This document shows positions 4,137 through 50,518 of a stretch of DNA of 64,000 nt, in pieces. The notes beneath the pieces were generated by a model. The model saw only the letters and a list, made by a program, of their open reading frames with translations, made no database searches and was not told where the DNA came from. The DNA lies in NCBI GenBank assembly GCA_963835535.1, contig CAWIFL010000002.1, forward strand, positions 649,011 through 713,010, given 5' to 3'. The DNA comes from an uncultured Gemmatimonadales bacterium (GTDB taxonomy: Bacteria > Gemmatimonadota > Gemmatimonadetes > Gemmatimonadales > JACORV01). Both the position numbers and the translations under genes were made by a program. Within the stretch, counting starts at the first letter, position 1, and every line of letters starts with the position of its first letter.

Positions 4137-4201
4137 GGGCCGGTTATGTTAGCGTCCCGGAGCGGTGGCGCAAACCCCCTGCCTCTTCGGTACTTACCTG
4201 C

Positions 4202-4256
4202 CTCTTGACGGGGCCGGTGCCGCGCCCCAAGTTTGCTTTACCTTGCAGAGTACTTT
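4202..4256 (+). promoter_or_regulatory. Candidate promoter/5' element of exporter gene 1 (block shared with 21116-21170)
   Basis: CTCTTGACGG (4202-4211) contains a -35-like TTGACG that ends exactly 32 nt before TTG 4243. It is followed by TGCAGAGTACTTT (4244-4256). The same two boxes, with the same 32-nt spacing, precede the paralogue at 21157. Confidence 0.4.
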
Positions 4257-4278
4257 GTACAACACGGCAAGCCACCCC

Positions 4279-6926
4279 ATGCGGGTGCTCCAGAGCGCCT
4301 GGCGCTTCACCCGGCGCCCGATGATCACTCTGGCCGCGATGGAGCTTGCCTCGACGCTCCTGGGCGCTGCGGCTGGGCCCCTGACCCCTAACCCCTATCC
4401 CCTAACCCCTGTCTTTCTCGCCGCCCAGCAGCCCGCCGGAGTGTCGGACCAACAGCTCCAGCAATACCTCCAGCAGCCGGGCATCGCCGACCAGCTGCGC
4501 CAGCGCATCCAGCAGAGCGGCCTCTCGGCCGACGAGATCCGCTCACGCCTCCGGGCCGCGGGTTACCCCGACAGCGCCATGAACGCCTACCTCGCCCCCG
4601 GTGCGGCGGGGGTGCAGGCGCCCGCGCCGACGCTCGAGACGCTCCGCGCCGCCACGGCGCTGGGGCTGGGGACGTTCGGGCCCTCGCCCGACACGCTGAA
4701 CGCGCTCCGCCGGGTCGTGGCGCTCTCGCAGGGGGACTCGATCCTCCTCGACTCCCTGGGCTTCGAGATCGGCCGCGACTCGATCCCCGGCCGGATGGGG
4801 AGCGACGGCGTGATGCGCCTCGACACGGCCGCGGCGCTCCGGATCTCGGCGTGGCTCAAGCGGCCCAAGGTCTTCGGCCTCGACGTCTTCAGGCGCACGA
4901 CGACGCAGTTCAGTCCGGTCGCCTCCGGGCCGGTGGACGCCGGCTACCGCCTCGGGCCGGGGGACGACCTGATCCTGATCCTCACCGGAGACGCGGACGT
5001 CGTCGAGGAGCTGCCCGTCACGCGCGAGGGGTTCGTGGTGATCCCGCAGGTAGGGCGCGTGCCGGTCGCGAACCTCACCCTGGGCGAGCTGCGGACGCTG
5101 CTCGCGACGCGGCTGGCGCGCGTGTACTCCGGCGTGAGGACGGGGACGATCCGCTACGACGTGACCGTCTCGCGGGTGCGGATGAACCAGGTGTTCGTGG
5201 ACGGCGAGGTGGTGCGGCCCGGCTCCTACCCGGTGAGCGCGCTCGGCACCGTGATGAACGCGCTCTACCTGGCGGGGGGCCCGACCGAGGCGGCCGACTT
5301 CCGCGACGTGCGCGTCATGAGGGGCGGCGCCGTGATCCAGCAGCTCGACCTCTACGACTACCTGGTCCGCGGGAACACGCGCGGCGACATCCGGCTCGAG
5401 CAGGGCGACGTGGTCTTCGTGCCGCCGGTCCAGCGGCGCGTGCAGGTCACGGGCGCCGTGCTGCGGCCGGGCTTCTACGACCTGGCCGACACGGAGGACC
5501 TGGGCGCCCTGATCCACTACGCCGGCGGGCTGCTGCCCAATGCGGATCAGGGACGGGCGCACATCGAGCGCATCCTCCCGGAGGCCCAGCGGCAGGCGGG
5601 CGGGCGCGATCGCGTGGCGATGGACGTGAACGATCTCGCCGGGGTGCTCCGGAGGGGGGGGCGGGGGGCGGCACGACGCCTCACTTCCGGCTGGAGCCCG
5701 GCGACCGCGTCACGATCTTCCCCGTCACCGAGGCCGTCCGGGGCGAGGTCACGCTGCGGGGGAGCGTCTGGAAGCCCGGCCCCTACGCCGTGGAGCCGGG
5801 GATGACGCTCTCGCGCCTCCTCGCCGAGGCGGGCGGCCTCAAGCCCGACGCGTATCTCGATCGAGCGCACGTCGTGCGCCTGATGCCGGATTCGACGCGG
5901 CGGCTGATCACCGCGGATCTGCGCTCGCTCCTCGGGCCCGGAGGGGCGATCCTGCCGAATCCGCCGGCGGCCGACGACCCGCAGCTCGCGGAGAACGACG
6001 AGGTGACGGTCTTCGCCACGCCGGAGTTCCGGCCGCCGCGCGAGATCCGGGTCTTCGGCGCCGTGCAGCACCCCGGCACCTATTCCTTCCGGGACTCGAT
6101 GACGGTGCGGGACGCCGTCATTCTCGCGGGCGGGCTCGGCGACGACGCGTATCTGCTCGAGGCGGAGATCTCGCGCCTGCCGCAAAGCCCGACGGACACC
6201 TCCGCGCTCGCCCAGATCATCCACGTCCCGCTCGACTCGAGCTACGTGATCGATCCGACGTCATACGTGCGGCGCGTCACCGCGCCGCAGGGGTCGAATC
6301 CGGTCCTGCAGCCGTCCGACTACGTCTTCGTCCGGCGGGTGCCGGGGCTGGAGCCGCAGCGGACGGTGGTCGTCACGGGCCAGGTGCGATTCCCCGGCCA
6401 CTACGCGCTGACGAGCCGGGACGATCGGCTGGCGGACGTCCTGCGCCGCGCGGGGGGCGTGACGACGAACGCGTACGTGCACGGCGCGCAGTTCTTCCGC
6501 TCGTTGGGCCATGCCGGCCGGATCGGCATCGACTTCGAGGGGGTGCTGAAGGACCAGCGCAACCGGGACAACCTGCCGCTCTTCGGCGGCGACTCGATCT
6601 ACGTGCCGGAGTACCAGCCGATCGTGAGCGTCGAAGGGGCGGTGAACAGCCCGGTCGCGGTGGCGTACGAGCAGGGGCGCGGGACGGGCTTCTACATCGA
6701 GCGGGCGGGCGGGTTCACGCGCCACGCGGACAAGGGGCGGACGTACGTGATCCAGCCCAACGGCTCGGTGTTCACGCGGAGCGCCACGCCCGAGCCGGGG
6801 GCCAGGGTCGTGGTGCCGGAGACGCCGCCGGGCGAGCGCACCAACTGGATACAGATCCTGTCCAGCGTAGGCCAGCTCCTGGTGAGCACGGTGACGCTGG
6901 CGATCCTGGCCAAGCAGGTGCTGTAG
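4279..6926 (+). CDS. Outer-membrane polysaccharide export protein (OPX/Wza-family, Poly_export + multiple SLBB repeats), paralogue 1; interrupted by one frameshift as assembled
   Basis: Two overlapping ORFs (4165-5805 and 4851-6926) together align end to end with the 21157-23832 paralogue. The frame switches inside the G8/G6 tract at 5654-5668. Repeated SLBB-like motifs are present (GAVxxPGxY, D...LxxAGG). C-terminal hydrophobic helix NWIQILSSVGQLLVSTVTLAILA. Alternative start at TTG 4243. Confidence 0.8.
4385..4410 (+). repeat. 7-bp tandem repeat (CCCCTAA/CCCCTAT) x3.7 inside the exporter-1 coding region
   Basis: Direct reading gives cccctaa cccctat cccctaa cccct, which encodes PLTPNPYPLTP just after the predicted signal/anchor segment. 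Confidence 0.85.
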
Positions 6927-6934
6927 CGGCCGTC

Positions 6935-8563
6935 CTAGCGGAGAGCGTACCTCACGCTCAGGATGACGTTCAGGTTGAAGGCGTCGTGCTGGAAGTATCG
7001 GTTGAACTCGTAGACAGCACCCACGTGGGCCAACACGTCGTAGCGGCCGAGGAAGGCGAGGCGCTCGACGGCCAGCTCGTGCTGGACGTCGAAGGCGTGC
7101 GGGATGGCCTGACTCGGCTGCGCGTTGCCTCCCTGTTGAGCCTGCAGGATCCGGGTCCACGAGAAGGTCCAGCGGCCGGTCGGGCGAGTAGGAGTCCACG
7201 GCCACGACCGACGCCCGCGCCGCCCGGTCCGCGGACGGACCCGAGCACTTGGCCCAGCTCAGTGTGGCCCTGTGTCGGCACGTCTCACGTGCGTGTAGAA
7301 CGGTCGACGGTGGCGCGACCCTGCGCCAGCACCGAGGGCTGCGTGTTCTGCAGCTTCCGCCCGCACGGCAAGCAGCCGGTTCCCGGCCCGCCGCATCACC
7401 TTGCGGAAGCCGATCGTGTAGCCGCCGTCGTGATCGGGTTCCTCGATGATATCGCGGAGATTCATGTTGTAGTCTTCGCGGCCATACTCGCCGTAGACCT
7501 CGAACCCGCTGTGCGGCAGCACCCAGCGGAAGTAGGCCGAAGCCAGCTGGTAGTCGATTTCCCTTGAGGCTGGCGTTGAGTGCCCCCTGATACCGCAGCA
7601 CCTTCAGGAGGTCGGCATGGAGGAGGCCGCCGGCCGGCCAGGGCTGGTGGGAGAAGCGCGTGACTCCAAGCTCCAGACCCGGGAGCCAGCGGGAGGTGAG
7701 GTTCAAGTTGATCCCGGTAGCGTACCTGACGCCGGCAGAGGCTGTCTCCGGCGAGAAGGCGGACTGGCTCGAGCCGTCCCCAGAGCATCCGGACGTGGAC
7801 GCGAAGAAGCCAGAGGTCCAGCGGATGAGCTGTTCCCGACGAAGGCTTGCGGGAAGCCCGCCGCGTTGTTGCCGAGGACGATCGGGAACTCGGTGGCGGG
7901 GCCCCAGTACTGATTCGCGGTGGTCACGCCTGCCGCGAGGGGACCCCAGTCGAGCCGGGCAGTGGACTGCCCGGGATCCACCCGCGCATAGGCGCCGCTT
8001 CCGAACCGCTGCGGCAGGTCAATCTGGTCGGGCAGCACGCCATCCGCGTAGGCGAGCGTTCCCGTCTCGCCGTTGGGCATCAGGGGGAAGCCGGCGTTCT
8101 GCGCGACGAACGCCATGGGGGCGACGGTCAGCGACAGCACACCCCACCGCAACGCCACGCCCGCCTGGCCGGCGAGCGTGAGGCCCCGCCCCGCCCAGAT
8201 CGGGCCGTCGTTGTAGCCATACGGGAACGTCGAGTTGTACCGCACACTCGCGGTCGGGGCCACCCAATCCACGGAGATGCCCTTCGCGGCCCGCGGCGTC
8301 AGGTCGTAGCGATCAGCCCAGGGATGGAGCGTGTCACGGGGCATGAGCCGGTCCAGCTCGGCCGGTGAGAACGCCCGGACGCCCCACGGATACGGCGCGA
8401 CCTCGCCCAGGGTCTGGAGATAGCGGAGGTAATTCTCCAGCTCGCCGCCGGCGAAGATCTCGGAGCGCCCGCCCACGCTCGGTGCGCCTTGGGCGGCGGC
8501 GGAGCGCGTGGCAGCTGCGATCGCCAGGCTGAGGAGAATCGCGGCGGGAACTGGACGAATCAC
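6935..8563 (-). pseudogene. Wzi-family (capsule assembly) outer-membrane beta-barrel, paralogue 1; at least 6 frame changes as assembled
   Basis: The N-terminal ORF 7703-8563 has a signal peptide (MIRPVPAAILLSLAIAAATRSAAAQG) and the QYWGPATEFPIVLGNNAAGFP motif. I followed homology to the 9696-11332 paralogue by hand through successive frames, with shifts near 7845, 7770, 7560, 7280, 7215 and 7165. It runs to the C-terminus ...VYEFNRYFQHDAFNLNVILSVRYALR, with the stop at 6935-6937. Confidence 0.65.
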
Positions 8564-8614
8564 GGCGTGAGCTTACTTGACCCCCCAGATGCGCGTCAAC
8601 ATCTTGACTCGCGC

Positions 8615-9676
8615 ATGGACCCCGACAAGCTCACCCTGCCGGCGCTGGTGGCCGGCATCCTCTCCCGCTGGCGCACCGTGGTCAGGGTGACGGTCGCGAT
8701 CGCCGTGCTCGCCCTGGTCCTCTCGTTCGTCCTGCCGCCCGGCTACGAGAGCCAGGCGACGTTCGTCACGAGCGACACCCAGATCCAGCTCCCCAACGGC
8801 CTCTCCGACCTGGCGAGCGGGCCCGGAGTGTCGGGCATCGTCTCGCAGCTGGGCCTGGGCGGAAGCAAGGACCCTTCGACCTCCCCGGCGTTCTACGAGC
8901 AGCTCCTGGGCAGCCGCGAATTGCTGACGCGGCTCGTGCTGTCGCCGTTCCCGGACCCGCGCAAGACGACGGCGGACAGCTCGGATCTCCTCTCCATCCT
9001 GCGGATCAGGAACGAGGATCGCGAGCGCGCGATCGAGATCGGGATCAAGCGCGCCAAGCGGGCGATGAAGGTCGGCGTGGATCCGCGGACGAGCTTCGTC
9101 TCCGTCACCGTCAGCACCCCGTGGGCGCCGCTCAGCGCCGAGGTGGCGAACCGGATCGTGGACCTGGTGAGCGCGTTCAACGGCGCGCAACGGCAGTCCC
9201 GGGCCCGGGCGCGGCGGATCTTCCTCGCGGGCCGCGTCGACAGCGCGCAGGCCGAGGTGAGCGCGGCCGAACGGGGGCTGAGCGATTTCTACGAGCGGAA
9301 CCGGCTGTGGCGCAGCTCGCCCGCGCTCATCGTCCGGGAGGCGAGCCTCCGGCGGCAGGTGGAGATGGCCGGCGAGCTGTACCTCTCGATCCGGCAGCAG
9401 TTCGAGGGCGCCCGCATCGACGAGGTCAACACCACGCCGGTGATCACCGTCGTGGACGCCGCCGTGCCGTCGCACCAGCCGCTGTGGCCCCGCCGTGTCG
9501 CCATCGTCGTCACGGCCGCTTTCGCGGGGCTCTGGCTCGGGCTGCTCTGGGTGGCGCTGCGCGTGCTCGCGGGCCACTGGGCGGCGAGCCACCCGGCGGA
9601 CGCCTCGTCCCTCCGCGATGCGATGGCCCGCACGTGGCGCGAAGCCGGCGAGACGCTGCGCCGGCGGCACGCGTAG
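8615..9676 (+). CDS. Polysaccharide co-polymerase / chain-length determinant (Wzz-like, no kinase domain)
   Basis: ATG at 8615 (MDPDKLTLPALVAGILSRW). N-terminal TM segment, long coiled-coil-like periplasmic region and a C-terminal TM segment (RRVAIVVTAAFAGLWLGLLWVAL). No Walker-A or Tyr-rich tail. Confidence 0.75.
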   Translation: MDPDKLTLPALVAGILSRWRTVVRVTVAIAVLALVLSFVLPPGYESQATFVTSDTQIQLPNGLSDLASGPGVSGIVSQLGLGGSKDPSTSPAFYEQLLGSRELLTRLVLSPFPDPRKTTADSSDLLSILRIRNEDRERAIEIGIKRAKRAMKVGVDPRTSFVSVTVSTPWAPLSAEVANRIVDLVSAFNGAQRQSRARARRIFLAGRVDSAQAEVSAAERGLSDFYERNRLWRSSPALIVREASLRRQVEMAGELYLSIRQQFEGARIDEVNTTPVITVVDAAVPSHQPLWPRRVAIVVTAAFAGLWLGLLWVALRVLAGHWAASHPADASSLRDAMARTWREAGETLRRRHA

Positions 9677-9695
9677 CCGCTCCACCGCCGTTCCC

Positions 9696-11332
9696 ATGCC
9701 GCTCACCCCCCGGGCGCTCCTTCTCGCCGGCGCGGCCGTGCTTCCGCGCCGCGCGCCGACGCTCAGGGCATCCCGTGGAGCCGCCTCGTCACCATCGGCG
9801 GCGAGGCCGACGATCGCGCCCGCGCCGCCCAGCTCCTCGGCGACACGACGCCGGGGTACCTGCTGCGCAGCGCCTCGACGCTCACCCCCGCGCTGCCGGG
9901 CGATACCACGCGGCCGCGGTGGGCGCTGCTGCTCCCCGAGGTCACGACCATCGCGAACTCGACGATCCCCTTCTCCCTCAACGACGGCTCGCTGTGGGCG
10001 GGTCGCGGGTGGAACGAGCGGGTTCGCTTCGGATTCCGGCTCGAGTCGGGGAGCTTCTTCCTGGTCGTCGCGCCGGAGGTCGTCGCCAGCCAGAACCTCC
10101 CCTACCCGATGCCCGATCCGGCCACGATCCCTCGTCAGCCGCCGGATCGGAACGCGCTGGCCAACCCCTGGCACCTCGATCCGTCCATTGACGCGCCGCT
10201 GCGCTTCGGATACACGGGCTTCTGGTCGGTGGACCCGGGCCAGACCGCGCTCGGGCTGCACGCGGGCGCCCTCACGGTCGGCGCCGGCACCGAGAACGAG
10301 TGGTGGGGCCCCGGCATTCAGAACGCCATCGTCCTGAGCGACAACGCCGCCGGCATCCCGCGGCTGTTCGTGCGCACCACGCGCCCGATCCGCACGCCCA
10401 TCGGCGACGTGGAAGGCGACTGGTTCCTGGGGGGCCTCACGGAGTCCCGCTATTTCGACACGCACCACTCCGACGCCTGGCGCTCGATCTCGGGGATCGC
10501 CCTCCTCTGGCATCCCCTCTTCGAGAGAGACCTGTCGCTCGGCATCGAGCGCACGGTGTACGCGCCGCTCGATACCTGGACCCAGCTCCCCGGGCGCATC
10601 TTCGACGTGCTCCTGGGCAGCGGCCGGCGCGCGGCCCCGTCCCCCGACACGGGCTACGTCGCCGCCCGGGACCAGATCTTCGCCCTCTTCGGGCGCTGGG
10701 TCTTTCCGAAGGACCACCTCGCCGTGCACGTCGAGTGGGCCCGCACGGTGCTGCCGTCTTCCCTCGCCGACCTGCTCACCGACCCCAACTACTCGCAGGG
10801 GTACACGCTGGGCCTCGAGTGGGGGGCTCCAGTCCACAGCGGTCGGGACCTCATCCGGTTGCAGGCGGAGGAGACGTACCTGGAGAAGAGCCCGGCGTAC
10901 CGCGACCGGCCGGAGGCGAGCTTCTACACCAGCAGCGCGGTGCCGCAGGGCTACACGCAGGACGGAAAGGTGATCGGGGCCGCGATCGGGCCAGGCGCTT
11001 CCGGCCAGTGGCTCGGGATCGACTACATCGCCCCGAAGTGGCTCGTCGGCGTCTTCGGCGGGCGGATCCGCTGGGACGACGATGCGCTGTACTCGTTCCC
11101 TACGCCGATCACGGCCACCGACGTCAACAAGTGGTGCGCGCACGACGTGTCGCTCTACGGCGGAGCCCGAGCGGCGGTCCAGAGCCCCTGGGGCCGGTTG
11201 AGCGTGTCCGTCACGCGGGGCGAGCGGCTGAACCTCTTCTTCGACAACCTCACGCAGTGCGACCCGAACCCCAACCAGAACCTCATCCTCGACGCGCGGA
11301 ACACCACGCTCGAGGTGCGCTTCACGCCGTGA
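9696..11332 (+). CDS. Wzi-family outer-membrane beta-barrel, paralogue 2; probable frameshift in the signal-peptide region
   Basis: The ENEWWGPGIQNAIVLSDNAAGIPRLFV motif is typical of Wzi. ATG 9696 gives MPLTPRALLLAGAAVL... in one frame. The mature protein (..ADAQGIPWSRLVTIGG..) continues in the frame of ORF 10109-11332. The switch lies near 9735-9765. Confidence 0.7.
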
Positions 11333-11339
11333 CGTCCGG

Positions 11340-12716
11340 ATGACGGCCTCCACCCTCACCGCCGGAGCGGCGCCGGCACCAGGGGCCGGGGCCGACGGGC
11401 TCGGCTGGGCGCTGGGCGCCTTCATCTGGCTCCTCCCCTTCCACATCCTCGCGATGGCCCTGCTGTTCGGTTTGTTCGGGGTCAGCGCGACCGTGGTGCG
11501 GGTGCTCTCGGCGTGGAAGGAGATGCTCGCGGCCGCGCTCATCGCGTTCGTGGTCGTGCGGGCGCTCGCGGGAAGCAGGCCGAGGCTCACGGTCCGGGCA
11601 GCCGATCCGGTCCTTGCCGCGCTCGGGCTCCTGGCGCTGGTGTACTTCCTCGGCGCGGGAGTGTGGTTCGGATACGACATCCCGCTCGGCGCGCAGGCCC
11701 TCGGGCTGAGGGACGCGGCGGGATTCTGCCTGCTCTACTTCGTCGGGCGCTGCGCCCCCCGGATCGCGGACGACCCTCGCTACCTGCGCGCCATCGTCGC
11801 GGTGGGGGTCGTGACGAGCGTCATCGCGATATTCGAGCGCCTGCTCGTGACTCCTGAGGCGCTCGTGCTCCTGGGCGCGACGCGGTACATCAAGGACTTC
11901 CTGGGGCTCGGGATCACGACCAGCCACAACCCGTACGGGCTCCCGGACAGCTACTGGACCATCCTCGGCAGCCACCTCGTCCAGCGGGCCGGCTCGACCT
12001 ACCTGTCGAGCCAGGGCTTCGCGGTGCAGTTCCTGGTCATACTCCCGGCGGCCACGATCGCCCTGTTCACGGCGCAGCGGCGCCGGGGATGGGCGCTCGC
12101 CGCCTGTGCCGTCCTCTGGGCGGGCCTGTTGCTCTCGATCACCAGGGTGACGACGCTCGCGTGCGTGATCCAGCTGTTCGTGCTGGCGGCGCTGTACGAC
12201 CGCTGGGGCACGGTGGTGCGTGGCGCCGCCATCGTCACGGCGGTGCTGGCGGCCGCCCTCGTCGCCGTCCCCGGCTTCGCCACCCTGGTCCTGGAGACGC
12301 TGACGTGGCAGAGCGCGAGCAGCATCTCCCATCTCGAGATCTGGGGCATGGGGCTCGCGCAGCTCCTCGAGCACCCGCTCGGCCTGGGGCTCGGGGCGGG
12401 CAGCCTGGCGGCCGCCCGCTTCGGCCTTCCCGTCATCGCCGGCGACAATCAGTACCTGACCTACTCCACGACGCTGGGCCTGCCGGGGCTGCTCCTGTAC
12501 GCCGCCGTTCTCGTCACGCTTCTCGCGGCGGGGTTGCGGGCATTCCGGACGGCCGCCACGGCGAGCGCCCGGGATTACGGCGCGCTGGTCGCGGTCGCGG
12601 CCTTGGGCATCGCGATCAATGGGATCACCACGGACCTGATCTCGAATGCGTTCCTCTCGTACACCTTCTTCTGGCTCGCCGGCACGGCGGTGAGCGCGAT
12701 CCGGGACCGGGTGTGA
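11340..12716 (+). CDS. O-antigen ligase/polymerase-family integral membrane protein (Wzy-like)
   Basis: 458-aa polytopic ORF with at least 10 hydrophobic segments. It has a Wzy_C-like loop (GSTYLSSQGFAVQFL..., LLLSITRVTTLACVIQL) and a periplasmic loop with WG..LAQLLEHPLGLGLGAG. Confidence 0.7.
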   Translation: MTASTLTAGAAPAPGAGADGLGWALGAFIWLLPFHILAMALLFGLFGVSATVVRVLSAWKEMLAAALIAFVVVRALAGSRPRLTVRAADPVLAALGLLALVYFLGAGVWFGYDIPLGAQALGLRDAAGFCLLYFVGRCAPRIADDPRYLRAIVAVGVVTSVIAIFERLLVTPEALVLLGATRYIKDFLGLGITTSHNPYGLPDSYWTILGSHLVQRAGSTYLSSQGFAVQFLVILPAATIALFTAQRRRGWALAACAVLWAGLLLSITRVTTLACVIQLFVLAALYDRWGTVVRGAAIVTAVLAAALVAVPGFATLVLETLTWQSASSISHLEIWGMGLAQLLEHPLGLGLGAGSLAAARFGLPVIAGDNQYLTYSTTLGLPGLLLYAAVLVTLLAAGLRAFRTAATASARDYGALVAVAALGIAINGITTDLISNAFLSYTFFWLAGTAVSAIRDRV

Positions 12717-13914
12717 GCGCGCCGGACGGGTGCCGAACCGGGGACAACTCCTCCGAGGCGCCGCCCGCTGGATCGCGCCCGGGCACGAGTGCCACCGGGT
12801 CGCGCGTCGCATTCGACGATTCCTACGGCCGGCTCGTGGCGATCGGCACGGGCGTCTACATCCGGAGCCTGTCCGCGGCGCTCGAGTCCCTCGTGGGCCA
12901 GCGGTTCGTGCGTGTGACGGAGCCGGTTCGCGCGGCGGCCCAAGAGCGCACGGCGCACGCCCCGCGAGCAATTCGACACGCTGATGAGGGACCTCTGGTG
13001 GCACCAGGCGGGCGCCGAGGTCGCCGCGCGGCGGCGAGGCGCCGCGCTGCTGCACATGCCCGTCGGGTTGGGGCCCCTCGCGGGCAGTCTGCCGATCGTC
13101 ACCACCGTCCACGACGTGATGCCGATCCGCTTCGCGAAGCTGTTCCGTCCGTGGTACCGGTGGTATGCGGGCGTGGTGATGCCACGACTTGGCGCGCCGG
13201 GCGCGTGCCGTCATCACCGTCTCCGAGGCCGCGAAGCAGGAGATCGTCGAGTGGTTCCGCGTCGCGCCCGAGCGGATCACCGTGATCCCCCACGGCATAG
13301 ACCCGGCGTTCGTGCCGCTCGCGGCCGGCGATCCGCAGGCCGCCGAGGTGAGGCAGCGGCATGACCTCCCGGCGGATTTCATCCTCGCGGTAGGGTCGGT
13401 GGAGCCCCGGAAGAACCTCCAGCGCCTGCTGGAGGCGGTGCACCTCCTCCGAGACCGCCCCGGGACTCGCGATGTCCGGCTCGTGCACGCGGGTCCCGAG
13501 GGGTGGCGGACGGAGGAGATCGCGGCGGCGGTGCGAAGGCTGTCGCTGGACGGCGCCGTGCGCTTCCTGGGCCACGTCCCGGCCGCGGACCTGCGCGTGC
13601 TGTTCGGCGCCGCACGCGCCTTCGTGTACCCGTCGCTCTGGGAGGGGTTCGGGATCCCCGTGCTCGAAGCGATGGCCTGCGGGTGCCCGGTCGTGGCCTC
13701 GGGCGTGGGGTCCATCCCCGAGGTGGCCGGCGGAGCAGCGCTCCTCGTGGACCCGGAATCGGTGGAGGACATCGCGGCGAGCATTGCGTCCGTGTGGAAC
13801 GGCGACCCGGTGCGCGCGGACTTGGTCCGCCGCGGCCTCGAGCGGGCCCGGAGCTTCACCTGGGATCGCGCCGCGCGCGCGACCGTCGCGGTCTATGATG
13901 CGGCCCTGGCCTGA
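12713..13914 (+). CDS. GT4 glycosyltransferase; two frameshifts as assembled
   Basis: The C-terminal ORF 13189-13914 carries the GT4 signature (PSLWEGFGIPVLEAMACGCPVV). The N-terminal parts lie in two other frames (RVAFDDSYGRL..GTGVYIRSL; LHMPVG...IVTTVHDVMPI). Shifts lie near 12940 and 13188. GTG 12713 overlaps the upstream stop (GTGTGA). Confidence 0.7.
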
Positions 13915-15386: not shown

Positions 15387-15968
15387 CCCGCTGAAGCTGT
15401 AAGTCGCACCCCCCGCCGTAAGCGTCAGCGCCACCGTCGTGTCCGATCGCGTGCCGGTGACCGAGGCGGGACTGGCGGGTGGAGCGATGCTGCCGGTTCC
15501 GGCCACGGAGCCGTTGCTGTCGGTGAGATCCAGGATGATCCGCGCGGAATCCTGAGATGCCGCCCACCTCCCCGTCAGCGAGGCGGCGGAATCGAGCTGG
15601 AGCGTCACCGGAATGCGCAGGCTGTCGGTCGGAACGACGATCGAGATGCTCGCGCTGTAGCTCCCCGGCGCGAGGCCGGCAGGCCGCCCGCCCACGTGCA
15701 GGAAGAAGGGCACGGTATCGCCGGTCGCGGCGAGCAGGAACCAGTTTGCGCTGACGTACGCGTGCCATCGGGCCGAAACGACCGTGTCGAGGCCGATGCT
15801 GATGTACTGGTCCGGAAGCAGCGTCGCACCGAGGCGGCCATGGAACGCCAGGCTCTCGGGCGTGACGATCAGTCGCGGCGCCCGCGTGTCCGGGACGCGC
15901 GCCTCCGTGCCGAGGCGGCAGCCGGACGTGACCGCCGCGAGCAGGAGCAGCCGAGCGAGTCGCCTCAC
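15306..15968 (-). CDS. Putative lipoprotein, unknown function
   Basis: MRRLARLLLLAAVTSGC lipobox-like signal. Thr/Ser/Gly-rich, beta-rich sequence. No family recognised. Confidence 0.5.
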   Translation of the reverse strand: MRRLARLLLLAAVTSGCRLGTEARVPDTRAPRLIVTPESLAFHGRLGATLLPDQYISIGLDTVVSARWHAYVSANWFLLAATGDTVPFFLHVGGRPAGLAPGSYSASISIVVPTDSLRIPVTLQLDSAASLTGRWAASQDSARIILDLTDSNGSVAGTGSIAPPASPASVTGTRSDTTVALTLTAGGATYSFSGLLVGDTTLVGTLTGGTAGLALTFYRQ

Positions 15969-17297
15969 GCGATCGCCCTCTCACGCACCGGGTGCCCCAC
16001 CCACCACATCGCCGCGCCGAGGAGGACCGCGTCAAGCGTGACCCTGAGCGTCCAGGCCAGGGCGGCCCCCGCGACGCCGTACGCTTCGATCAGCACCCAC
16101 GCCGCCGCCGCGTACAGCGGCAGCTCGATGAGGTGGAACATGGCCGGGATGTCGGGGCGGCCCCTGGCGAGGAGATACGCCGAGGGGAGGTACGCGAGCC
16201 CGTTGACGAGCACGCCGCCGGCCAGGATCGCGAGCGCCGTCGCCCCATTCGCGGCGTAGGCGTCGCCCAGCCACACGCTGAGCAGCGGATGCGCGAAGAG
16301 CGCGGCGAGGCCGGTGGGGAGCGCCAGGGCGGGAAGCAGGTACCAGAGCGCCCGTCCGACCAGCCGCTCGCTCTCGCGGCCCCCCCCTGCTCCGCTCTGC
16401 GCGGCACTCGCGCTCACGAGCGGGAAGAGCGCGCCCGCCAGGCTGGCCGGGACGATCGAGATCCGGATGATGGCCTCGAACGGCGCGGTGTAGTAGGCCA
16501 CGGCCGCCACGCCCGCGAGCGACGCGAGCAGGAACCGCTCGAGGTAGCCCAGGACTGGCGCGATGGCGTTCGAGACGCTCACCCAGCCGCCGTAGGCCAG
16601 CAAGCGGCCGAAGCACCGCCCAGCTCGGCCGCAGCTCCCAGCGGAACTCCGGCAGCGAGCGCCGGATCGCCACGGCCAGCGCCCAGCACGCCGCGATGCG
16701 GGTGGCCAGCAGCAGGAGCACGATCGTGGCGAGGCTGGCGCCGAGCGGCGCGGCGATGGCGGGTATGGCGAACCCCGCCACGGCCAGCGGGCCCCGCACC
16801 AGGTTGCCGAGATCGAACCGCTGCGCCCCCTCGAGGATCCCCCTGAGGCTCGCGGAGAGCACCACGAACGGGACCGAGGCGGCGAGCGCGATCAGCGCGA
16901 GGTGCGCCTCGCGATGCAGCGCGGCCGGGATGCCGAGGGCGCTCGTGAGCCATCCGCTCGCCAGCGCGAGAGCGACCCCGCCGATCACCCCGAGCCCGGT
17001 CTGGCTCGCGACCGTGAGGCCGGCCACGCGCCGCAGCTCGGCGTGCTTCCCCAGAGACAGATACTCGGCCACGTACTTGGTGGTCGCACGGCCCAGGCCG
17101 AGGTCGAGCGCCACGGCGGAACCCAGGATCGCCCAGATCAGGCCGAGCAGTCCGAACCGGGGTGCGCCGAGGTAGCGCGTGGCGATGGGGATCGCCGCGA
17201 CACCTACCAGGAGGGGGACGGCCTGGCCCAGCAGGTTGTAGAGGGTGTTCCGCGCGAGGGCGCGGCCGTGCTCAGCAGTGCTGCTCGACGTAGTCAT
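15965..17297 (-). CDS. Wzx-type polysaccharide flippase (MOP superfamily) 1; one frameshift as assembled
   Basis: The N-terminal ORF (from 17297) reads ARNTLYNLLGQAVPLLVGVAAIPIATRYLG..FGLLGLIW. The C-terminal ORF 15965-16603 continues the TM pattern. The frames join near 16600-16612. Confidence 0.7.
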
Positions 17298-18423
17298 CCA
17301 GGCGCGCCACGAACGCGTCCCACGAGTAGAGCCGCGAGCGCTCGATCCCGGCGGCTCCCATCCGCCGCGCGGCCTCGGGGTTCCCCGCGAGCCACGCCAT
17401 CCGCTCCGCGAACGCCTCCACCTTGGGCTCGAGCAGGAATCCGGTGACGCCGTCCTGCACCGTCTCGGTCGGACCGGCCCGGTTCACGGCGAGCACCGGC
17501 TTCCCGTAGGCCATCGCCTCGACGGGGACCATTCCCCACGGCTCGCTCAGCGACGGGAACACGAGCGCATAGCAGCGGTCGTACAGGCGCTCGATCTCGG
17601 CAGCGCCCGGGTCGAGCCGGAACTCGATCGCCGGCTCCTTGGACGCGAGCGAGCGCAGCGAGCGCAGGTAAGCGCCGTCCATGCGGTCCACGTCGCCGGC
17701 GATGACCAGCCGCCAGGGCGTGTCCGGGTTCAGACGCCGGAACTCCAGGAACGCCCCGATCGCCAGCTCGGCGTTCTTGGTCCACTTCACGCGACTCAGG
17801 AAGAGGAAATACGGCTCCGACGTCAGCGTCGGCCGCACCCGCGCGGGATCCACTCCCGGATGCAGGACCTCCACCCGGTCGGGCGCGCAGAGGCCCGCGC
17901 TGACTACCTGGCGGCGGACCTCCTCGCCATTCACGAACACGTGCTGGTAGTGCCGCCACGCACGCCGCGTGGCCCGGTGGTAAATGCCCCGGTACAGCGC
18001 CAGCGGCAGGCGATAGAGCGGGCGCTGCTCCAGGAGCGTCTCCCGGTACACGGGGTCGTAGACGGGCCGCACGAGCGTGTGGCAGTAGCAGATGACGGGT
18101 TTGGCGTGATTGCGGAACGTGATGAAGTCGCCCAGGCCCTCCGAGGAGACGACGAGTGCGTCGAACGTCGAAGGATCGAGCTTCTCCGCGGCGATGGTGG
18201 CGGCTCCGGTGAGCGCCTTGCCGAGCGTGCGCTTCACCGAGACGCGGTGCAGCTCGACCACCCGTTCCAGGTTCCGAAACTCCGGGAACGTCCCGTCGTA
18301 GTCCACGTGGCTGGTGTAGATCACGTACTCGTGGCGGCTGCGCGTCGCCATCTCGAGGATGCACCGCTCGGCCCCGGACCGCAGGTGCACCCATGGATAG
18401 TACAGCGCGACGCGTTTCGTCAT
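17272..18423 (-). CDS. GT4 glycosyltransferase
   Basis: Intact 383-aa ORF. C-terminal GT4 signature FPSLSEPWGMVPVEAMAYGKPVLA..GPTETV. Confidence 0.8.
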   Translation of the reverse strand: MTKRVALYYPWVHLRSGAERCILEMATRSRHEYVIYTSHVDYDGTFPEFRNLERVVELHRVSVKRTLGKALTGAATIAAEKLDPSTFDALVVSSEGLGDFITFRNHAKPVICYCHTLVRPVYDPVYRETLLEQRPLYRLPLALYRGIYHRATRRAWRHYQHVFVNGEEVRRQVVSAGLCAPDRVEVLHPGVDPARVRPTLTSEPYFLFLSRVKWTKNAELAIGAFLEFRRLNPDTPWRLVIAGDVDRMDGAYLRSLRSLASKEPAIEFRLDPGAAEIERLYDRCYALVFPSLSEPWGMVPVEAMAYGKPVLAVNRAGPTETVQDGVTGFLLEPKVEAFAERMAWLAGNPEAARRMGAAGIERSRLYSWDAFVARLDDYVEQHC

Positions 18424-21170: not shown

Positions 21171-23832
21171 TTCGCGCCCGATCGTGTTCCTGGTGGCCCT
21201 GGAGCTGGGGTTGACAGCTTCTCGGGGGCGGCTGGGTGGTCGCTACACCCTACACCCTACACCCTATCACCCTCGCCTTTGGCCGCCCAGCAGATCCCTA
21301 CTAGGCCCGCCAACGTCTCCGACCAGCAGCTGCAGCAGTACACCCAGCAGCCGGGGATGGGGGCCCAGATCCAGCAGGCGATCCAGCAGAGCGGCCTGAC
21401 GCCGGACCAGATCAGGGCGCGCCTGCGCGCGGCGGGATACCCCGAGAACCTGATTGACCAGTACATGCAGGCCCCGGCGGCCGGGCAGGCGGTGCCGAAC
21501 CCCACAGCGCAAATGCTGAGAGCGGTGTCGGCTTTGGGCATCGGCACCTTTGGAGCGCTTCCCGATACGCTTGCCGCCCGCCGCGACTCGATCTTCCTGA
21601 CGCGCGACGATTCCCTGCTCCTCGACTCCCTCGGCTTCACGATCGGCGTGGACTCGATCCCGACCAGGCGGGATACGCTCGGCTTCCTGCGCATAGACTC
21701 GCTGGCCACGTTCCGGTTGGCGGAGCGGGTGCACCGCCTGCGAGTCTTCGGCCTCGACGTCTTCCGGCGCACGACGACGCAGTTCAATCCCGCGGCCACC
21801 GGGCCTGTGGACCCCGACTACCGGCTCGGGCCGGGTGACCAGCTCGTGCTGATCCTCACCGGGGATGTGGAGACGGGTGTCGAGCTACCCGTCACACGGG
21901 AGGGCTTCATCGTCATCCCGCAGGTGGGGCAGCTCTACGTGGCCAACCTCACGATGGACCAGCTCCGGGACCTGCTCTACTCGCGGCTGGGACGGGTGTA
22001 CTCGGGGGTCAAGCGCGGGGCAGGCGCGACCACGCACTTCCAGGTCGCCGTGTCGCAGGTCAGGGTGAATCAGATCTTCGTGACCGGCGAGGTGGCGCGG
22101 CCCGGCGCATTCTCGGTGAGCGCTCTGGGCACGGTGATGAACGCGCTTTACGCCGCGGGCGGGCCGACCGAGCACGCCGACTTCCGTGGGGTGAAGGTGA
22201 TGCGGGCCGGGAAGGCGGTCGCGACGCTCGACCTTTACGACTATCTGCTGTCGGGGAACACTCGCAACGACGTCCGGCTCGAGCAGGGCGACGTGGTCTT
22301 CGTGCCACCCGTGAGCCGTCGCGTGGAGATCCGGGGCCAGGTGATGCGGCCGGCGCTGTACGATCTGGCCCAGGGGCAAGACCTCCGCGAATTGATCCAG
22401 ATGGCCGGCGGACTTCTGCCGCAGGCGTACACGGGGCGTGCGCAGATCGAGCGAATTCTCCCGCCCGACCAGCGGCCGCCGGGGGGCCGGGACCGCACCG
22501 TGGTGGACGTGGATCTCGCGGCTGCGCTGGGTCCCGGTGCCCCGTCCGTCCAGCTGGAGCCGGACGACCGGATCACGATCTTCGGCGTGAGCGTTCCGGT
22601 CAGGAACCGCGTCGTCGTCAAGGGCGACGTGTGGCGGCCGGGGGCGTACCAGGTCGATTCGGGGATGAAGCTGACCCAGCTCATCGCGGAGGCCGGAGGG
22701 CTGAAGCCCGACGCGTATCTGGACCGCGCGCACATCGTGCGATTGAACCCGGATTCGACTCGGGTCCTGATCCCGGTCAGCCTCGTGGGCATCCCGCCCC
22801 AAGGCGCGCCGGACTCCGGGCCCGCCGACACCCTACACCCTACACCCTACACCCATCTTGCCCCTACTGGGCATATCGCGTTCGATCCAGATCTCCAAGA
22901 GTTCGACGAAGTTACAGTCTATTCACGCACGGCCTTCCGCCCGACGCGGCAGATCGTGGTGTACGGCAACGTCCAGCATCCCGGCTTGTTCGCGTTCACC
23001 GACTCCCTGACCTTGCGGGACGCGGTGATGATGGCCGGGGGCTTGAGGGACGACGCGTACCTGTTGGAGGCGGAGATCTCGCGGATCCCCGAGCATCGGA
23101 CGGAGGGGGAGCTGGCCCGCGTGATCCAGGTCCCGCTCGATTCCAGCTACGTGTTCGACCCGACCGGCTACCTCAGCCGGCCGGCCGGGTCGGCCGCTCG
23201 GTCGCCCCGGCTCGAGCCGTACGACAACATCTTCATCAGGCGGGTCCCGGGCTGGGACCTCCAGCGGAACGTCTACATCACGGGCGAAGTGAAGTTCCCC
23301 GGCCGGTACACGCTCACGCGTCGCGACGAGAAGTTGCTGGATGTCCTCGACAGGGCCGGCGGGCTCACGCCGGACGCGTACATCGGCGGGGCGCAGTTCT
23401 ATCGAGCGCAGGGGAATGCGGGCCGCGTCGGCATTGACCTGAACAGGATCCTGAAGGACTCGACGTACAGGGACAACATGATCCTGTTCGCCGGCGACTC
23501 GCTGTACGTGCCGCAGTACCAGCCGGTGGTCTCGGTGGAAGGCGGCGTCAACAGCCCGGTGACGGTCGCCTATGTGCCCGGGCAGGGTACGTCGTACTAC
23601 ATTGACCGGGCGGGCGGGTTCTCGCGGCGCGCGGACAAAGGGCGGACCTACGTGGTGCAGCCCAACGGCTCGGTCGAGCGCGCGCAGCGCCACGCCGCAG
23701 CCGGGGGCGCGCGTCGTGGTGCCCGAGGTGCCGCCGGGTGAGGAGAGGACCAACTGGGCCGGGATTCTGAGCGCCGTCGCGACCATCCTCACCAGCGCGC
23801 TGACGATCGTGCTGGTGGTCCAGCGCCTGTGA
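21157..23832 (+). CDS. Outer-membrane polysaccharide export protein (OPX/Wza-family, multi-SLBB), paralogue 2; two frameshifts as assembled
   Basis: The main ORF 21279-23741 is collinear with paralogue 1. The N-terminus (MQSTFSRPIVFLVALELGLTAS) lies in another frame, with the switch at the G5 run 21224-21228. The C-terminal helix (NWAGILSAVATILTSALTIVLVV) lies in ORF 23572-23832, with the switch in the GC-dinucleotide run 23678-23685. Confidence 0.8.
21243..21270 (+). repeat. 7-bp tandem repeat (CTACACC) x3 perfect plus 1 imperfect unit in the 5' coding region of exporter 2
   Basis: Direct reading gives ctacacc ctacacc ctacacc ctatcac. It shares an identical 22-nt stretch (acaccctacaccctacacccta) with 22828-22849. 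Confidence 0.85.
22828..22855 (+). repeat. 7-bp tandem repeat (ACACCCT) x3 perfect plus 1 imperfect unit in the interior of exporter 2
   Basis: Direct reading gives acaccct acaccct acaccct acaccca, which encodes DTLHPTPYTH. The aligned position in paralogue 1 has no equivalent insert. Confidence 0.85.
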
Positions 23833-25903: not shown

Positions 25904-27102
25904 GTCTGTGGGGACGGAGCGCGGTGATCCAGCTGCGTACCGAGGATCGCCGACAGGCGGGCCACCCCCGCGGAGAACGAAAAGCGCTGCACGTAGAGAG
26001 TCTGAATCCGTCGGCGCGTCGCAAGGTCCGGCGGCGCCAGTCGCACGCGCTCCAGCGCGGCGACACACTCGTCCGGCCAGCGAAACACCTGGAGCAGCGG
26101 ACTCGGAAGCAGGTCCGCGTACCCACGCGCCGATACCGCGTGACTGACGACCGGCAAGCCGCAGCGCAGGCCGTCGCTCACCCGCAACTTCAACCCGCTG
26201 CCCAGGCGGAACGGCGCGACGTAGACATCGGCGTGCCGGACGACGGCATCCATCTCCCCGGGATCCGGCACCAGGCGGACACCGGCCTGCGCCACCAACC
26301 GTCGGACCTTGCTGGTCGGCGCACGCCCGGCCACAGTCACCATCACGTCCGGCACCCGGGCCTTGAGCCGCGGGTAGATTTCCGTGAGGAACCAAGCCAC
26401 ACCGTCCACGGTCTGCGCATCGCACAACGATCCCGTGGTCACGACATGGAATGGCCGCCTGTCCGGCGACTCCACATCCGGCGTGGTTGGCGACAATCTG
26501 TCGAAGCGGGCAAAGGTCCCGAGGACCTCCGTGGCCCGGCCTTCTGCCATCCCATACAAGTCACGCAGGCGCTCCTGGTCCTCACGGGTCATCGCCAAGT
26601 TGATGGAGCTGTGGTGCACGGCCATCCGCTCGTTCTTCCTGATGACGTGGACGAGCCGGGGACGGAGGAGGACATTCGATTCAGTGCTGGCGATGTAGTC
26701 AACTTCCACGTTATGATGCACCGTCACCACGGGAATGCCCATACCAGCCAAGCGGGGGGCGAAACGGCCGATTCGCGAGCGGTCGAGCAGGGCGAGCGCA
26801 GGAAGCTCCTCGGCGGCCGAGAGCCACCGGTCCACGAACGGAGACAGCAAGTCGTAACCGCGCGCTGTGGCGAGCCACCACACCTTCTGCCAGGTGCTGC
26901 GACGCGGGACCACGACGTACCGGCCGGCGGGCCTGGGCAAGGGGACACTTTGCAGCTCCTCTCGTCCGATGATCGTCAGGCAGGCTCCATACAGGTAGCT
27001 CATGGCCTGCAGCAGCGCCACGGTATGCTGCACGCCTCCGCCGCCCGAGGTTCCGGACGCCGTGAGGAACCAGACCGCCCCCCCCCGATGCACGTCAGGC
27101 AC
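25900..27102 (-). CDS. GT-B fold glycosyltransferase (GT1/GT4-like)
   Basis: 400-aa ORF. The C-terminal half reads VVTTGSL...VDGVAWFLTEIYPRL...VTVAGRAP...DVYVAPFRLGSGLKLRVSDGLRCGLPVVS, typical of Glyco_trans_1-type domains. Confidence 0.6.
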   Translation of the reverse strand: MPDVHRGGAVWFLTASGTSGGGGVQHTVALLQAMSYLYGACLTIIGREELQSVPLPRPAGRYVVVPRRSTWQKVWWLATARGYDLLSPFVDRWLSAAEELPALALLDRSRIGRFAPRLAGMGIPVVTVHHNVEVDYIASTESNVLLRPRLVHVIRKNERMAVHHSSINLAMTREDQERLRDLYGMAEGRATEVLGTFARFDRLSPTTPDVESPDRRPFHVVTTGSLCDAQTVDGVAWFLTEIYPRLKARVPDVMVTVAGRAPTSKVRRLVAQAGVRLVPDPGEMDAVVRHADVYVAPFRLGSGLKLRVSDGLRCGLPVVSHAVSARGYADLLPSPLLQVFRWPDECVAALERVRLAPPDLATRRRIQTLYVQRFSFSAGVARLSAILGTQLDHRAPSPQT

Positions 27103-36037: not shown

Positions 36038-37049
36038 GACCCCCGCCCCCAACACCACGGTCACGATGATAATGGGCAAGTAAGCGATCATCACTCCCAG
36101 CGATCCGTCCAGCGATCCCCGCGCGACCAGTACGGCGAGGGGCAGCAACCAGCAGAGATTGATGACGCCGACCGAGATGGTGACCGGCCGGTGCGCGCCC
36201 CACAACTGGGCCGCGTGCTGGTAGGCGTGGCTCCGGTGCGCCTCGTAGAACCTGTCGCCCCGCGCCACACGGCGAATCAGCGTCACCGTAGCGTCTACCA
36301 CGAAGACACCGAGCAGTACCGCCCAGCTCCAGAAGAGCCGGGGCGCCAGCCAGCCCGCCTGCAGCGAGAGCGCCGCCAGCATCAGCCCGAGAAAGCCGCT
36401 GCCGGAATCGCCCATGAAAATCTTCGCCGGGGGCCAGTTCCAGACCAGAAAACCCGCGGTCGCCGCCGCCAGCACCAGCGGGACAAGCCACTGTGAAGAT
36501 CCCGGGGCCGCGATGAGGGCAGACAGCACGCCGCCCAAGCAGACCGTGATCCCCTCGACGCCGGCGATGCCGTCTATGCCGTCCATGAAGTTGGTGAGGT
36601 TGAGCAGCCACACCAGGTACAGGGCTGCGAGAACGTAGCCGACAAAGCCGAAGTGGTGCTCCGACCCGAGCAGCGGGACGGGCGGCATACCGCCCAGCCA
36701 CACTAGGATCCACCCAGCGGCGACGAAAGGGCGCCAGCAGGCGCCACTGCGGCGCGATGTGCCGATGGTCGTCCACCGCGCCGATCGCGGCGACGATCGC
36801 CCCTCCGCCCGGAAGGCCCCACACCACGGACCAGTCCTCGAGGCCCATCCACCCCAGCACCGGCAGTGCGGCCAGCGTGGTCAGCGCGATGGCGATCCCG
36901 CCGCCGCGCGGCGTCGGCCGCGTGTGCGAGCTGCGCGCGTTGGGGAGATCCATCACCTCGCGGCGGACGGCGTAGCGCTGCGCCGCGCCGGCCAGGAGCC
37001 AGCTCAATGCCGCCGCCGCGGCGCCAAGGAACAGCCAGTGAAGACTCAC
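36038..37049 (-). CDS. Polyprenyl-phosphate N-acetylhexosamine-1-phosphate transferase (WbpL/WecA/MraY family, GT4-PNPT); one internal frameshift and no stop as assembled
   Basis: GTG 37049 forms a GTGA overlap with the epimerase stop. The N-terminal part carries MDLPNARSSHTRPTPRGGGIAI. After a frame switch near 36725-36735 it continues NLTNFMDGIDGIAG...FMGDSGSGFLG. Confidence 0.75.
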
Positions 37050-38042
37050 GCCGACGGCATCCGCCGGGCCCGAAACCAGGCCGCGGTCGCGGCCAGACCC
37101 GCTGACAGGCTGTGCGGCGGGACGTACCCGGTTCTCCTCAGCCGCGTCGAGTCGAGGACCAGCGAACCGGTCAGACCGTCCATGCCGTTCGCACTTATCC
37201 CGATAGGCACCACTCGCGAAACAAGCTCCGCGATCACTCCCCCCAGTCGCAGCAGCGCCGGCGGCACGGCCACCAGGCGGGCCGGGACATCGAGGGCCTG
37301 CGCGACCGCCCGCACGAGAAGCGGCGTGGACACGATCTCGGGGTCCGCAACCACGTACGTGCCCTCCGACCTCCCGTCGGCCAGAACCGCGAGCAGCGCC
37401 GCAACGAGGTTGCCGACGAACAGCATGCTGCGCTGGTTCCTGACGGCGCCCACGGGGATCGGAAGCCCACGGTCCACGACCTGGAACAAGCCGAAGCAGG
37501 TTGCCCTTCATGCCCGGCCCGTATACGAGCGGAGGGCGGAAGATCAGCGCTCTCATCCCGGCGCCGGCGGCCACTTCACGCACCAGGCCCTCGGCCTCCA
37601 GCTTGCTCACGCCGTACGCGCTGACCGGCGCCGGCGCCGTCGCTTCGTTGACGGGCCGCTCACTCTTCCCGCACGTCGCGGCGATAGAGCTCATGAAGAG
37701 GAAATGCCGCACGCCAGCGCGCTCCGATTCCTCGAGCAGCGCCCGCGTGCCCTCCACGTTGACGCGCCGGAATTCGTCGGACCTGAGGGCGTCCCGGATC
37801 ACGACGTGGACCGCACCCGCCAGGTGGACGACGGTACGCACGCCGTCCAGCGCAGCGCCGAGCGCGGCGCGATCGAGCAGATCCCCGGAGACGGCCGCGA
37901 CACCCGCCGGAAGTGACGTGGCGGGTGGCAGCACGAGCGCGCGCACCCTCATCCCGGAGCCGACGAGCGCCCGCGAGACGTGCTGGCCGATGAAGCCGGT
38001 GGCGCCCGTGACGAGCACAACGTCACCGCCGTCGCCTGCCAC
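37046..38042 (-). CDS. NAD-dependent sugar epimerase/dehydratase (extended SDR); one frameshift as assembled
   Basis: VLVTGATGFIGQHV, SSIAA and YGVSKLEAE motifs in the first frame. The C-terminal 147 aa (FQVVDRGLPIPVGAVRNQRSMLFVGNL...) lie in ORF 37046-37489. The switch is near 37483-37493. Confidence 0.75.
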
Positions 38043-38043
38043 G

Positions 38044-50511: not shown

Positions 50512-50518
50512 GGCCACC

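Follow-up and report, generated by a model that had tools for sequence, protein, structure and literature searches.

Homopolymer contingency loci include the poly-G tracts in capsule and LOS genes of Campylobacter jejuni and the poly-C tract in siaD of Neisseria meningitidis, and we know of no contingency-locus system for surface polysaccharides in the Gemmatimonadota, the uncultured peat/soil phylum considered here. We analysed a stretch of 64,000 nucleotides from an uncultured member of this phylum (hereafter the window, meaning the whole stretch), in which a polysaccharide export gene, exporter gene 1, changes reading frame within a compound poly-G tract. The gene resembles the described contingency loci in that a G/C run of at least 8 nt lies inside a capsule/EPS coding sequence, a change of one base in either direction toggles the frame, and an open reading frame is kept on both sides. 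Unlike in those loci, the relatives of this gene show no tract-length polymorphism, the tract is interrupted in several strains and long runs are not enriched. The host is also different, being a soil/peat bacterium of 70% G+C whose G-runs come from glycine codons, and the affected gene is an exporter, not a glycosyltransferase or a polymerase.

As a protein, exporter 1 is comparable to E. coli Wza (2J58) and PslD, with which it shares a Poly_export (PES) domain followed by SLBB, a hydrophobic C-terminus, and Wzz/GNVR, Wzy_C, Wzx and Wzi neighbours. Wza has about 380 aa, whereas exporter 1 has about 880 aa with six SLBB repeats and is without a lipobox; the lipobox cysteine found in E. coli Wza is not universal in the OPX family. 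Also unlike Wza, two diverged paralogues (60% identity) are present in one locus here.

Long-read assemblies are known to retain gene-fragmenting indels as residual errors, above all at low or modest coverage (PMC9262707; PMC8812927), and the phenomenon itself is described in these two sources and in PMC12007338. The window is like such assemblies in that single-base indels unique to one assembly split conserved genes into adjacent ORFs without nonsense codons, long runs are hit preferentially (three of the seven runs of at least 7 nt), and the contig is very long (714 kb). It is unlike them in that the residual errors of Nanopore sequencing are described chiefly as errors of homopolymer length, whereas the breaks in the window are mostly +1 changes away from homopolymers, with one gene holding a dense group of them, and in that the tract itself is 5 nt off its relatives.

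Exporter gene 1 and its frame switch

Exporter gene 1 (4279-6926, forward strand) codes for an OPX/Wza-like outer-membrane polysaccharide export protein of about 880 aa that occupies two frames in this sequence. Pfam searches placed Poly_export (PF02563, E 6e-13) and two SLBB stretches (PF10531, E 7e-21) in its 5' part and four SLBB stretches (E 7e-32) in its 3' part. Solved structures exist among its relatives for Wza-type exporters only, the nearest being Wza 2J58, and Wza, PslD and related chains match residues ~247-396 of the protein. Intact homologues have 860-890 aa, the best of them (P0001) being 98% identical; homologues of 800-900 aa number over 2,000, and the named ones among them belong to Gemmatimonadota/Gemmatimonadales. 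The C-terminus, which in Wza forms the helix of the outer-membrane pore (D4), is hydrophobic (...NWIQILSSVGQLLVSTVTLAILAKQVL) and is kept in the members of the cluster around P0001. No cysteine occurs in the first ~60 residues of the translation from the ATG at 4279, and the N-terminus is thus without a Wza-type lipobox. In two relatives (L010 and L014) the neighbours of the orthologue code for a dTDP-sugar isomerase, Wzi, Wzz/GNVR, a second Wzi, Wzy_C, GT4, GT2 and a Wzx flippase, and the same association with genes of the Wzx/Wzy pathway and a PCP (Wzz-like) gene is also seen in the window. Domain content and neighbours together identify an OPX exporter in a Wzx/Wzy-type polysaccharide locus; judged by its domains and context, exporter 1 is a member of the OPX/Wza family.

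The frame changes at 5654-5668 (forward strand), where G8 (5654-5661), a single C (5662) and G6 (5663-5668) are flanked by cgga on the 5' side and cggc on the 3' side. The ORF at 4165-5805 (codon starts at positions with remainder 1 on division by 3) reads ...DVNDLAGVLRR (...RDRVAMDVNDLAGVLRR), followed by low-complexity nonsense until the stop at 5805. The ORF at 4851-6926 (remainder 0) begins with nonsense and makes sense just 3' of the tract (...TTPHFRLEPGDRVTIF; ...TTPHFRLEPGDRVTIFPV...), ending with the stop at 6926. The 5' fragment, as it would be called (4279-5805, forward strand, 508 aa), therefore consists of true coding sequence to ~5653 and of 50 out-of-frame codons to a TGA, and the 3' part (5669-6926, forward strand) runs from TTPHFRLEPGD... 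in the other frame through a putative C-terminal hydrophobic helix to the stop. A database protein encoded on a contig of 714,473 nt, P0132 (NCBI/ENA), has exactly the same sequence as the 5' fragment. As the genome has ~70% G+C, the GC content by codon position sharply marks the coding frame, and a frame HMM based on GC3 put the switch at 5650/5651. The first-pass annotation had located the break in this tract and had proposed that a single-G change restores a protein of ~880 aa. Both claims are borne out, the former by the tract sequence and the two-ORF translation and the latter by the unbroken protein of 882 aa that begins at the ATG 4279 once one G is added; removal of two Gs also restores the frame.

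The same annotation held that both halves of the gene align with the intact middle of paralogue 2, a second OPX exporter (21279-23832, forward strand). The alignment stands (both halves match 21216-23675 with 60% identity over 828 aa) and the middle is intact, but paralogue 2 is itself shifted by +1 near its 3' end, where one extra G at ~23680 (GAGC[G]CGCGC) breaks the frame. This frame change was seen by tblastn and confirmed in the sequence, and alignment with L006 and L002 shows it to be a single extra base in the window.

The tract in relatives

Assemblies from JGI, ENA, Logan and NCBI contribute 18 proteins to the cluster around P0001 at 90% identity. The 12 of them listed at full length all keep the frame, with LR[G/A/R]GGGGATPHF at the tract. 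At the DNA level, eight contigs that are ~95-96% identical to the window were available, mostly from SPRUCE peat metagenomes and several of them MEGAHIT 'k141' contigs. Their copies of the gene are in frame without exception, with 14 nt between CTCC and GGC as compared to 19 nt in the window. Five of them (L001, L005, L008, L009 and L011) carry G7-C-G5 at the tract, two (L012 and L013) carry GG-A-G10 and one (L014) carries G3-C-G9. No polymorphism of tract length was thus seen among the eight DNA copies and the 12 full-length proteins, which differ by substitutions only, and the window alone departs in length. At the tract, the window is 5 nt and not 1 nt away from each of the relatives, so at least part of the length difference is probably real. 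To judge by the three substitution alleles in the relatives, the tract site clearly changes fast. The size of this difference (5 nt, not 1 nt) and the uninterrupted G9 and G10 that relatives carry in frame count against reading the break as an error. A cluster member of 374 aa whose start is the first Met 3' of the tract (P0122) was considered as an independent frameshifted copy and was rejected, since its gene is cut by the contig end at position 8 of L010.

In the protein alignment the tract corresponds to a loop that just precedes the 'LEPGDRVTIF' strand, and homologues of at most 78% identity are five residues shorter there; the poly-Gly insert encoded by the tract in the SLBB module is thus lineage-specific. 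A tract of this kind is rare by chance: 0.06 occurrences of the 15-mer with at most one mismatch are expected per window, and matches appeared in 6 of 100 shuffled sequences. G-runs of at least 8 nt number two in the window against ~1.6 expected under a first-order model based on run counts, and the run-length statistics show no over-representation of long G/C runs in the window for its base composition. The compound tract is accounted for by coding, namely by a poly-glycine loop that is also present in the relatives.

Frame breaks elsewhere in the window

Counting the one in exporter 1, the 64-kb window has at least 15 frame breaks, most of them single-base insertions outside repeats. The affected genes include paralogue 2, two Wzi genes and those for a GT4 glycosyltransferase, a Wzx flippase, NeuB, a PseB-like dehydratase and epimerases. 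The comparison with close relatives covers part of the window, and breaks elsewhere were read from Pfam profiles that are split across adjacent overlapping ORFs. When intact ORFs of relatives were searched against the window in translation, frame changes came up in exporter 1, both Wzi genes, GT4, Wzx and paralogue 2.

The most heavily affected is a Wzi-like gene next to exporter 1 (6938-8572, reverse strand), in which a dense cluster of ~8 window-specific single-base insertions between 7182 and 7838 produces several frame changes and coincides with lower identity; those outside repeats include 7182, 7212, 7354, 7556, 7771 and 7833. L005, L010 and L014 each carry an unbroken copy (516-543 aa). 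The second Wzi gene (forward strand) has one base missing ~12 codons in, at 9743-9744, a gap that is the same against L005, L010 and L014, and tblastn gave a frame change at 9743/9752. The GT4 gene (12713-13914, forward strand) has single-base insertions at 12917 (GTG[A]CGG) and 13189 (GAC[T]TGG), whereas L010 and L014 have an unbroken copy of 373 aa. The Wzx-type flippase gene (15965-17483, reverse strand) is split by one extra base at 16602 (CAGC[A]AGC), and its two ORFs cover positions 1-191 and 206-271 of the Pfam Polysacc_synt profile, in agreement with tblastn. In the Polysacc_synt_2 gene for a PseB/CapD-like dehydratase (62832-63885, reverse strand), the split lies at ~63444 (the two ORFs cover profile positions 53-156 and 155-288), and the frame HMM predicts a further change at ~63748. 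An epimerase gene is truncated at ~37494 according to its Pfam profile.

Two further breaks coincide with long runs. The gene of a NeuB-family sugar-acid synthase (reverse strand) changes frame at a C7 run (54814-54820, G7 on the coding strand), as seen by three-frame translation, and its profile is divided between the ORFs at 54504-55049 (positions 1-34) and 53992-54861 (positions 41-239). A C9 run (49946-49954, reverse strand) marks a probable break in a gene of unknown function, where the GC3 frame shifts across the run and the downstream frame is without a start codon for 112 nt; this break was seen by GC3 and three-frame translation.

The window-specific indels are nearly all +1 changes outside repeats (including those at 12917, 13189, 16602 and 23680), with one -1 change at 9743. 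Most sites are supported by three independent relatives, several in the Wzi-like gene by four, 12917 and 13189 by two and 16602 by one. We counted 7-10 gap clusters with a net length that is not a multiple of three when the relatives of the control described next were compared with the window over about 7-14.5 kb. As a control, L005, L010 and L012, which are short-read-style contigs of related populations, were compared with L014 over 9-10 kb, and not one such cluster was found. On the strength of this control, together with the agreement of independent relatives, we rejected the idea that the gaps come from misalignment of diverged DNA.

Three of the seven runs of at least 7 nt in the window sit at frame breaks (G8-C-G6, C9 and C7), and all three are one base short or two bases long; being off in one direction, they fit a systematic mis-sizing of long runs. 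Nine other runs of at least 6 nt in the region covered by relatives carry no length error. Since these runs are correct and most breaks are in non-repeat sequence, the error process is not simply homopolymer-driven, and a purely homopolymer-driven model, which fits only in part, was rejected for the same reasons. A random insertion in a given tract of 15 nt would be unlikely unless long runs are far more error-prone, an observation that counts against reading the break in exporter 1 as an error.

Origin of the frame break

We infer, with a probability of roughly 75%, that the break in exporter 1 arose as an indel error in the consensus or assembly and that the genome itself does not have it. 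The damage in the window is indel-only, biased towards insertion, mostly in non-repeat sequence, confined to one assembly and located in genes under purifying selection, and such a combination is the signature of consensus error. Frame-shifting indels that are unique to the window occur in unrelated genes, and the indel-only damage is found without raised dN/dS. The caveat attached to the first-pass annotation, that such a tract might be a sequencing or assembly error, thus turns out to be the better-supported reading, given at least 15 frame breaks seen in the window only, mostly outside repeats, and relatives that are intact. Exporter 1 would then be a functional Wza-like exporter whose tract encodes a poly-glycine loop that varies between strains, and the true tract would most likely be one G longer (LRRGG[A/R]GGGTTPHF) or two Gs shorter (LRRGGGGGTTPHF). 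The window sequence would be error-rich and probably part of a long-read, metagenome-derived contig; a contig as long as 714 kb from an uncultured peat/soil lineage suggests a long-read assembly. Three strain alleles coexisting at the loop would further confuse the consensus, and the hotspot in the Wzi-like gene may likewise be variable between strains.

Read as an error, the break is mainly a warning about sequence quality, with about one frame-breaking indel per 3-4 kb in the window. Split genes or 'pseudo' genes, short ORFs and apparent switches in the window, and probably in the whole 714-kb contig, should be given no biological reading without read support.

The main alternative is slipped-strand phase variation, in which the length of the poly-G tract would switch the exporter, and hence capsule/EPS, OFF and ON, and the assembly would have caught an OFF variant. 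Several properties of the locus are in keeping with it. The G8 and the G6 that follows lie inside the coding sequence, the G8 having the length needed for slippage (~7-8 nt or more for G/C), the frame is open on both sides of the tract with low dN/dS, and a second exporter paralogue is present. Relatives carry at this site an uninterrupted in-frame G9 (L014) or G10 (L012 and L013), which is long enough to slip in many bacteria, and the breaks in NeuB and in the gene of unknown function likewise lie in long G/C runs within polysaccharide genes. We nevertheless regard phase variation as unlikely. The repeat and the selected open frames are there, but a length polymorphism is absent from the eight DNA copies and 12 proteins, which come from many samples, and the breaks are not confined to repeats, at least 10 of them lying outside repeats where slippage does not explain them. 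In addition, the substitutions that interrupt the run (G3-C-G9 and G7-C-G5) are hard to square with a long pure tract being selected for, long runs are no commoner than the base composition predicts, and the difference from the relatives is +5 nt rather than a simple gain or loss of one base. The proposal that the poly-G tract serves as a phase-variation switch is therefore unsupported, as the relatives share one in-frame length, runs are not enriched and most breaks in the window are in non-repeat sequence. The wider version, that the poly-G of the exporter loop and the NeuB and 49946 runs are all real slipped-strand switches, with G9/G10 as the ON state and the window as OFF, seems distinctly doubtful from the sequences compared. 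If the break at the tract proved heterogeneous, homopolymer phase variation of capsule/EPS export would be extended to free-living Gemmatimonadota, which would be a modest but real advance.

Fixed inactivation, by which exporter 1 would be a recent pseudogene in a decaying polysaccharide locus along with paralogue 2, Wzi, GT4, Wzx and NeuB, would account for the breakage of many genes of one functional locus together and for the dense cluster of ~8 indels and the lower identity in the Wzi-like gene. It is improbable in view of the kind of damage: nearly all changes are +1 insertions, and nonsense codons, larger deletions and IS elements are lacking. Spontaneous indels in bacteria are deletion-biased, and real decay yields nonsense substitutions too. 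We found no internal nonsense codon in the coding segments of the window, save one at 7287 in the indel-riddled stretch of the Wzi-like gene, and no internal stop in either true frame of exporter 1; the damage is thus indel-only. Moreover, all these genes are intact in relatives at 95-96% identity, and the dN/dS ratios of exporter 1 against four relatives are 0.08-0.16 upstream of the break and 0.015-0.10 downstream. These ratios show strong purifying selection on both halves of the gene, and an old pseudogene was rejected on the low dN/dS and the lack of nonsense codons.

Programmed recoding, in which the uncorrected sequence would still give the full-length protein by ribosomal frameshifting or by slippage of transcription along the G run, could draw on the homopolymer at the junction and on two frames that are both open and conserved, but it is extremely improbable because the relatives are all in frame at the site and none needs it, a conserved slippery heptamer or stimulator is absent there, known transcriptional slippage takes place on long A/T runs, and more than 10 non-repeat breaks would also have to be covered. 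A change of length that leaves the frame unbroken is seen in the Wzx gene, where an in-frame insert of 6 nt creates a C8 run at 16380-16387.

Frame break in paralogue 2 and arrangement of the exporter genes

Like exporter 1, the second OPX exporter gene, paralogue 2 (21279-23832, plus strand), is frame-broken, here within 23670-23700. Compared with the related loci L006 and L002, the window gene carries a single extra G at about 23680 (GAGC[G]CGCGC), and another frame encodes its final ~45 residues, with the C-terminal helix among them. L006, the Gemmatimonadales MAG SPRUCE_616 / Ga0187885 contig, is a relative with 80% identity. Exporter 1 (window 4279-6926) and paralogue 2 have their L006 orthologues in tandem at 7071-12490, whereas ~14 kb separates the two genes in the window, and the locus has therefore been rearranged.

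Single-base breaks in the Wzi, GT4 and Wzx genes

The Wzi-like gene (6938-8572, minus strand) contains about eight window-specific single-base insertions and is read in several frames. These insertions crowd into ~650 nt (7182-7838), making the gene ~30 times as error-dense as the remainder of the region compared, and it is also in this stretch that divergence among the relatives is highest. The second Wzi gene (plus strand) is broken by a single-base deletion outside repeats at 9743, and is intact in the three related loci that cover the site (L005, L010 and L014). Two single-base insertions, at 12917 and 13189 and likewise outside repeats, break the GT4 gene (12713-13914, plus strand), which is unbroken in L010 and L014, the relatives covering both sites. 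The Wzx gene (15965-17483, minus strand) is broken by a single-base insertion outside repeats at 16602, a site at which L014, the only relative covering it, has the gene unbroken. The C8 run of Wzx (16380-16387) is a 6-nt in-frame insertion relative to L014 (GGCCC------GC), and represents a second G-rich, Gly/Arg-coding loop insert specific to the window sequence.

Other G/C homopolymers

In the NeuB-family synthase gene (minus strand), the frame switches within a coding-strand G7 run (54814-54820), and the reading ...GPWGGRTLYDLYGEAHTPWEWH... would be regained if this run were G8 or G5. A C9 run at 49946-49954 (G9 on the coding minus strand) probably marks a frame break between two ORFs (49795-50706 and 49025-50026), both without a Pfam match; the downstream frame lacks a start codon for 112 nt. 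Another C9 run (27078-27086), situated directly past the upstream gene's stop and ~6 codons inside a minus-strand gene starting near 27102, appears to be in frame.

Low-G+C region, dehydratase and epimerases

The stretch at 54.8-60.7 kb shows a drop in G+C from ~70% to ~57% (at 56-60 kb). No clear coding frame emerged there from the GC3 frame model, which calls coding frame from third-codon-position G+C; this DNA may be of foreign origin or atypical in some other way. The Polysacc_synt_2 dehydratase (62832-64000, minus strand) is split at ~63444 and possibly a second time at ~63748. An epimerase (36703-38183, minus strand) is truncated near 37494, at profile position 177/240, and in a further epimerase fragment (39203-40185, plus strand) frames alternate across 39298-40185.
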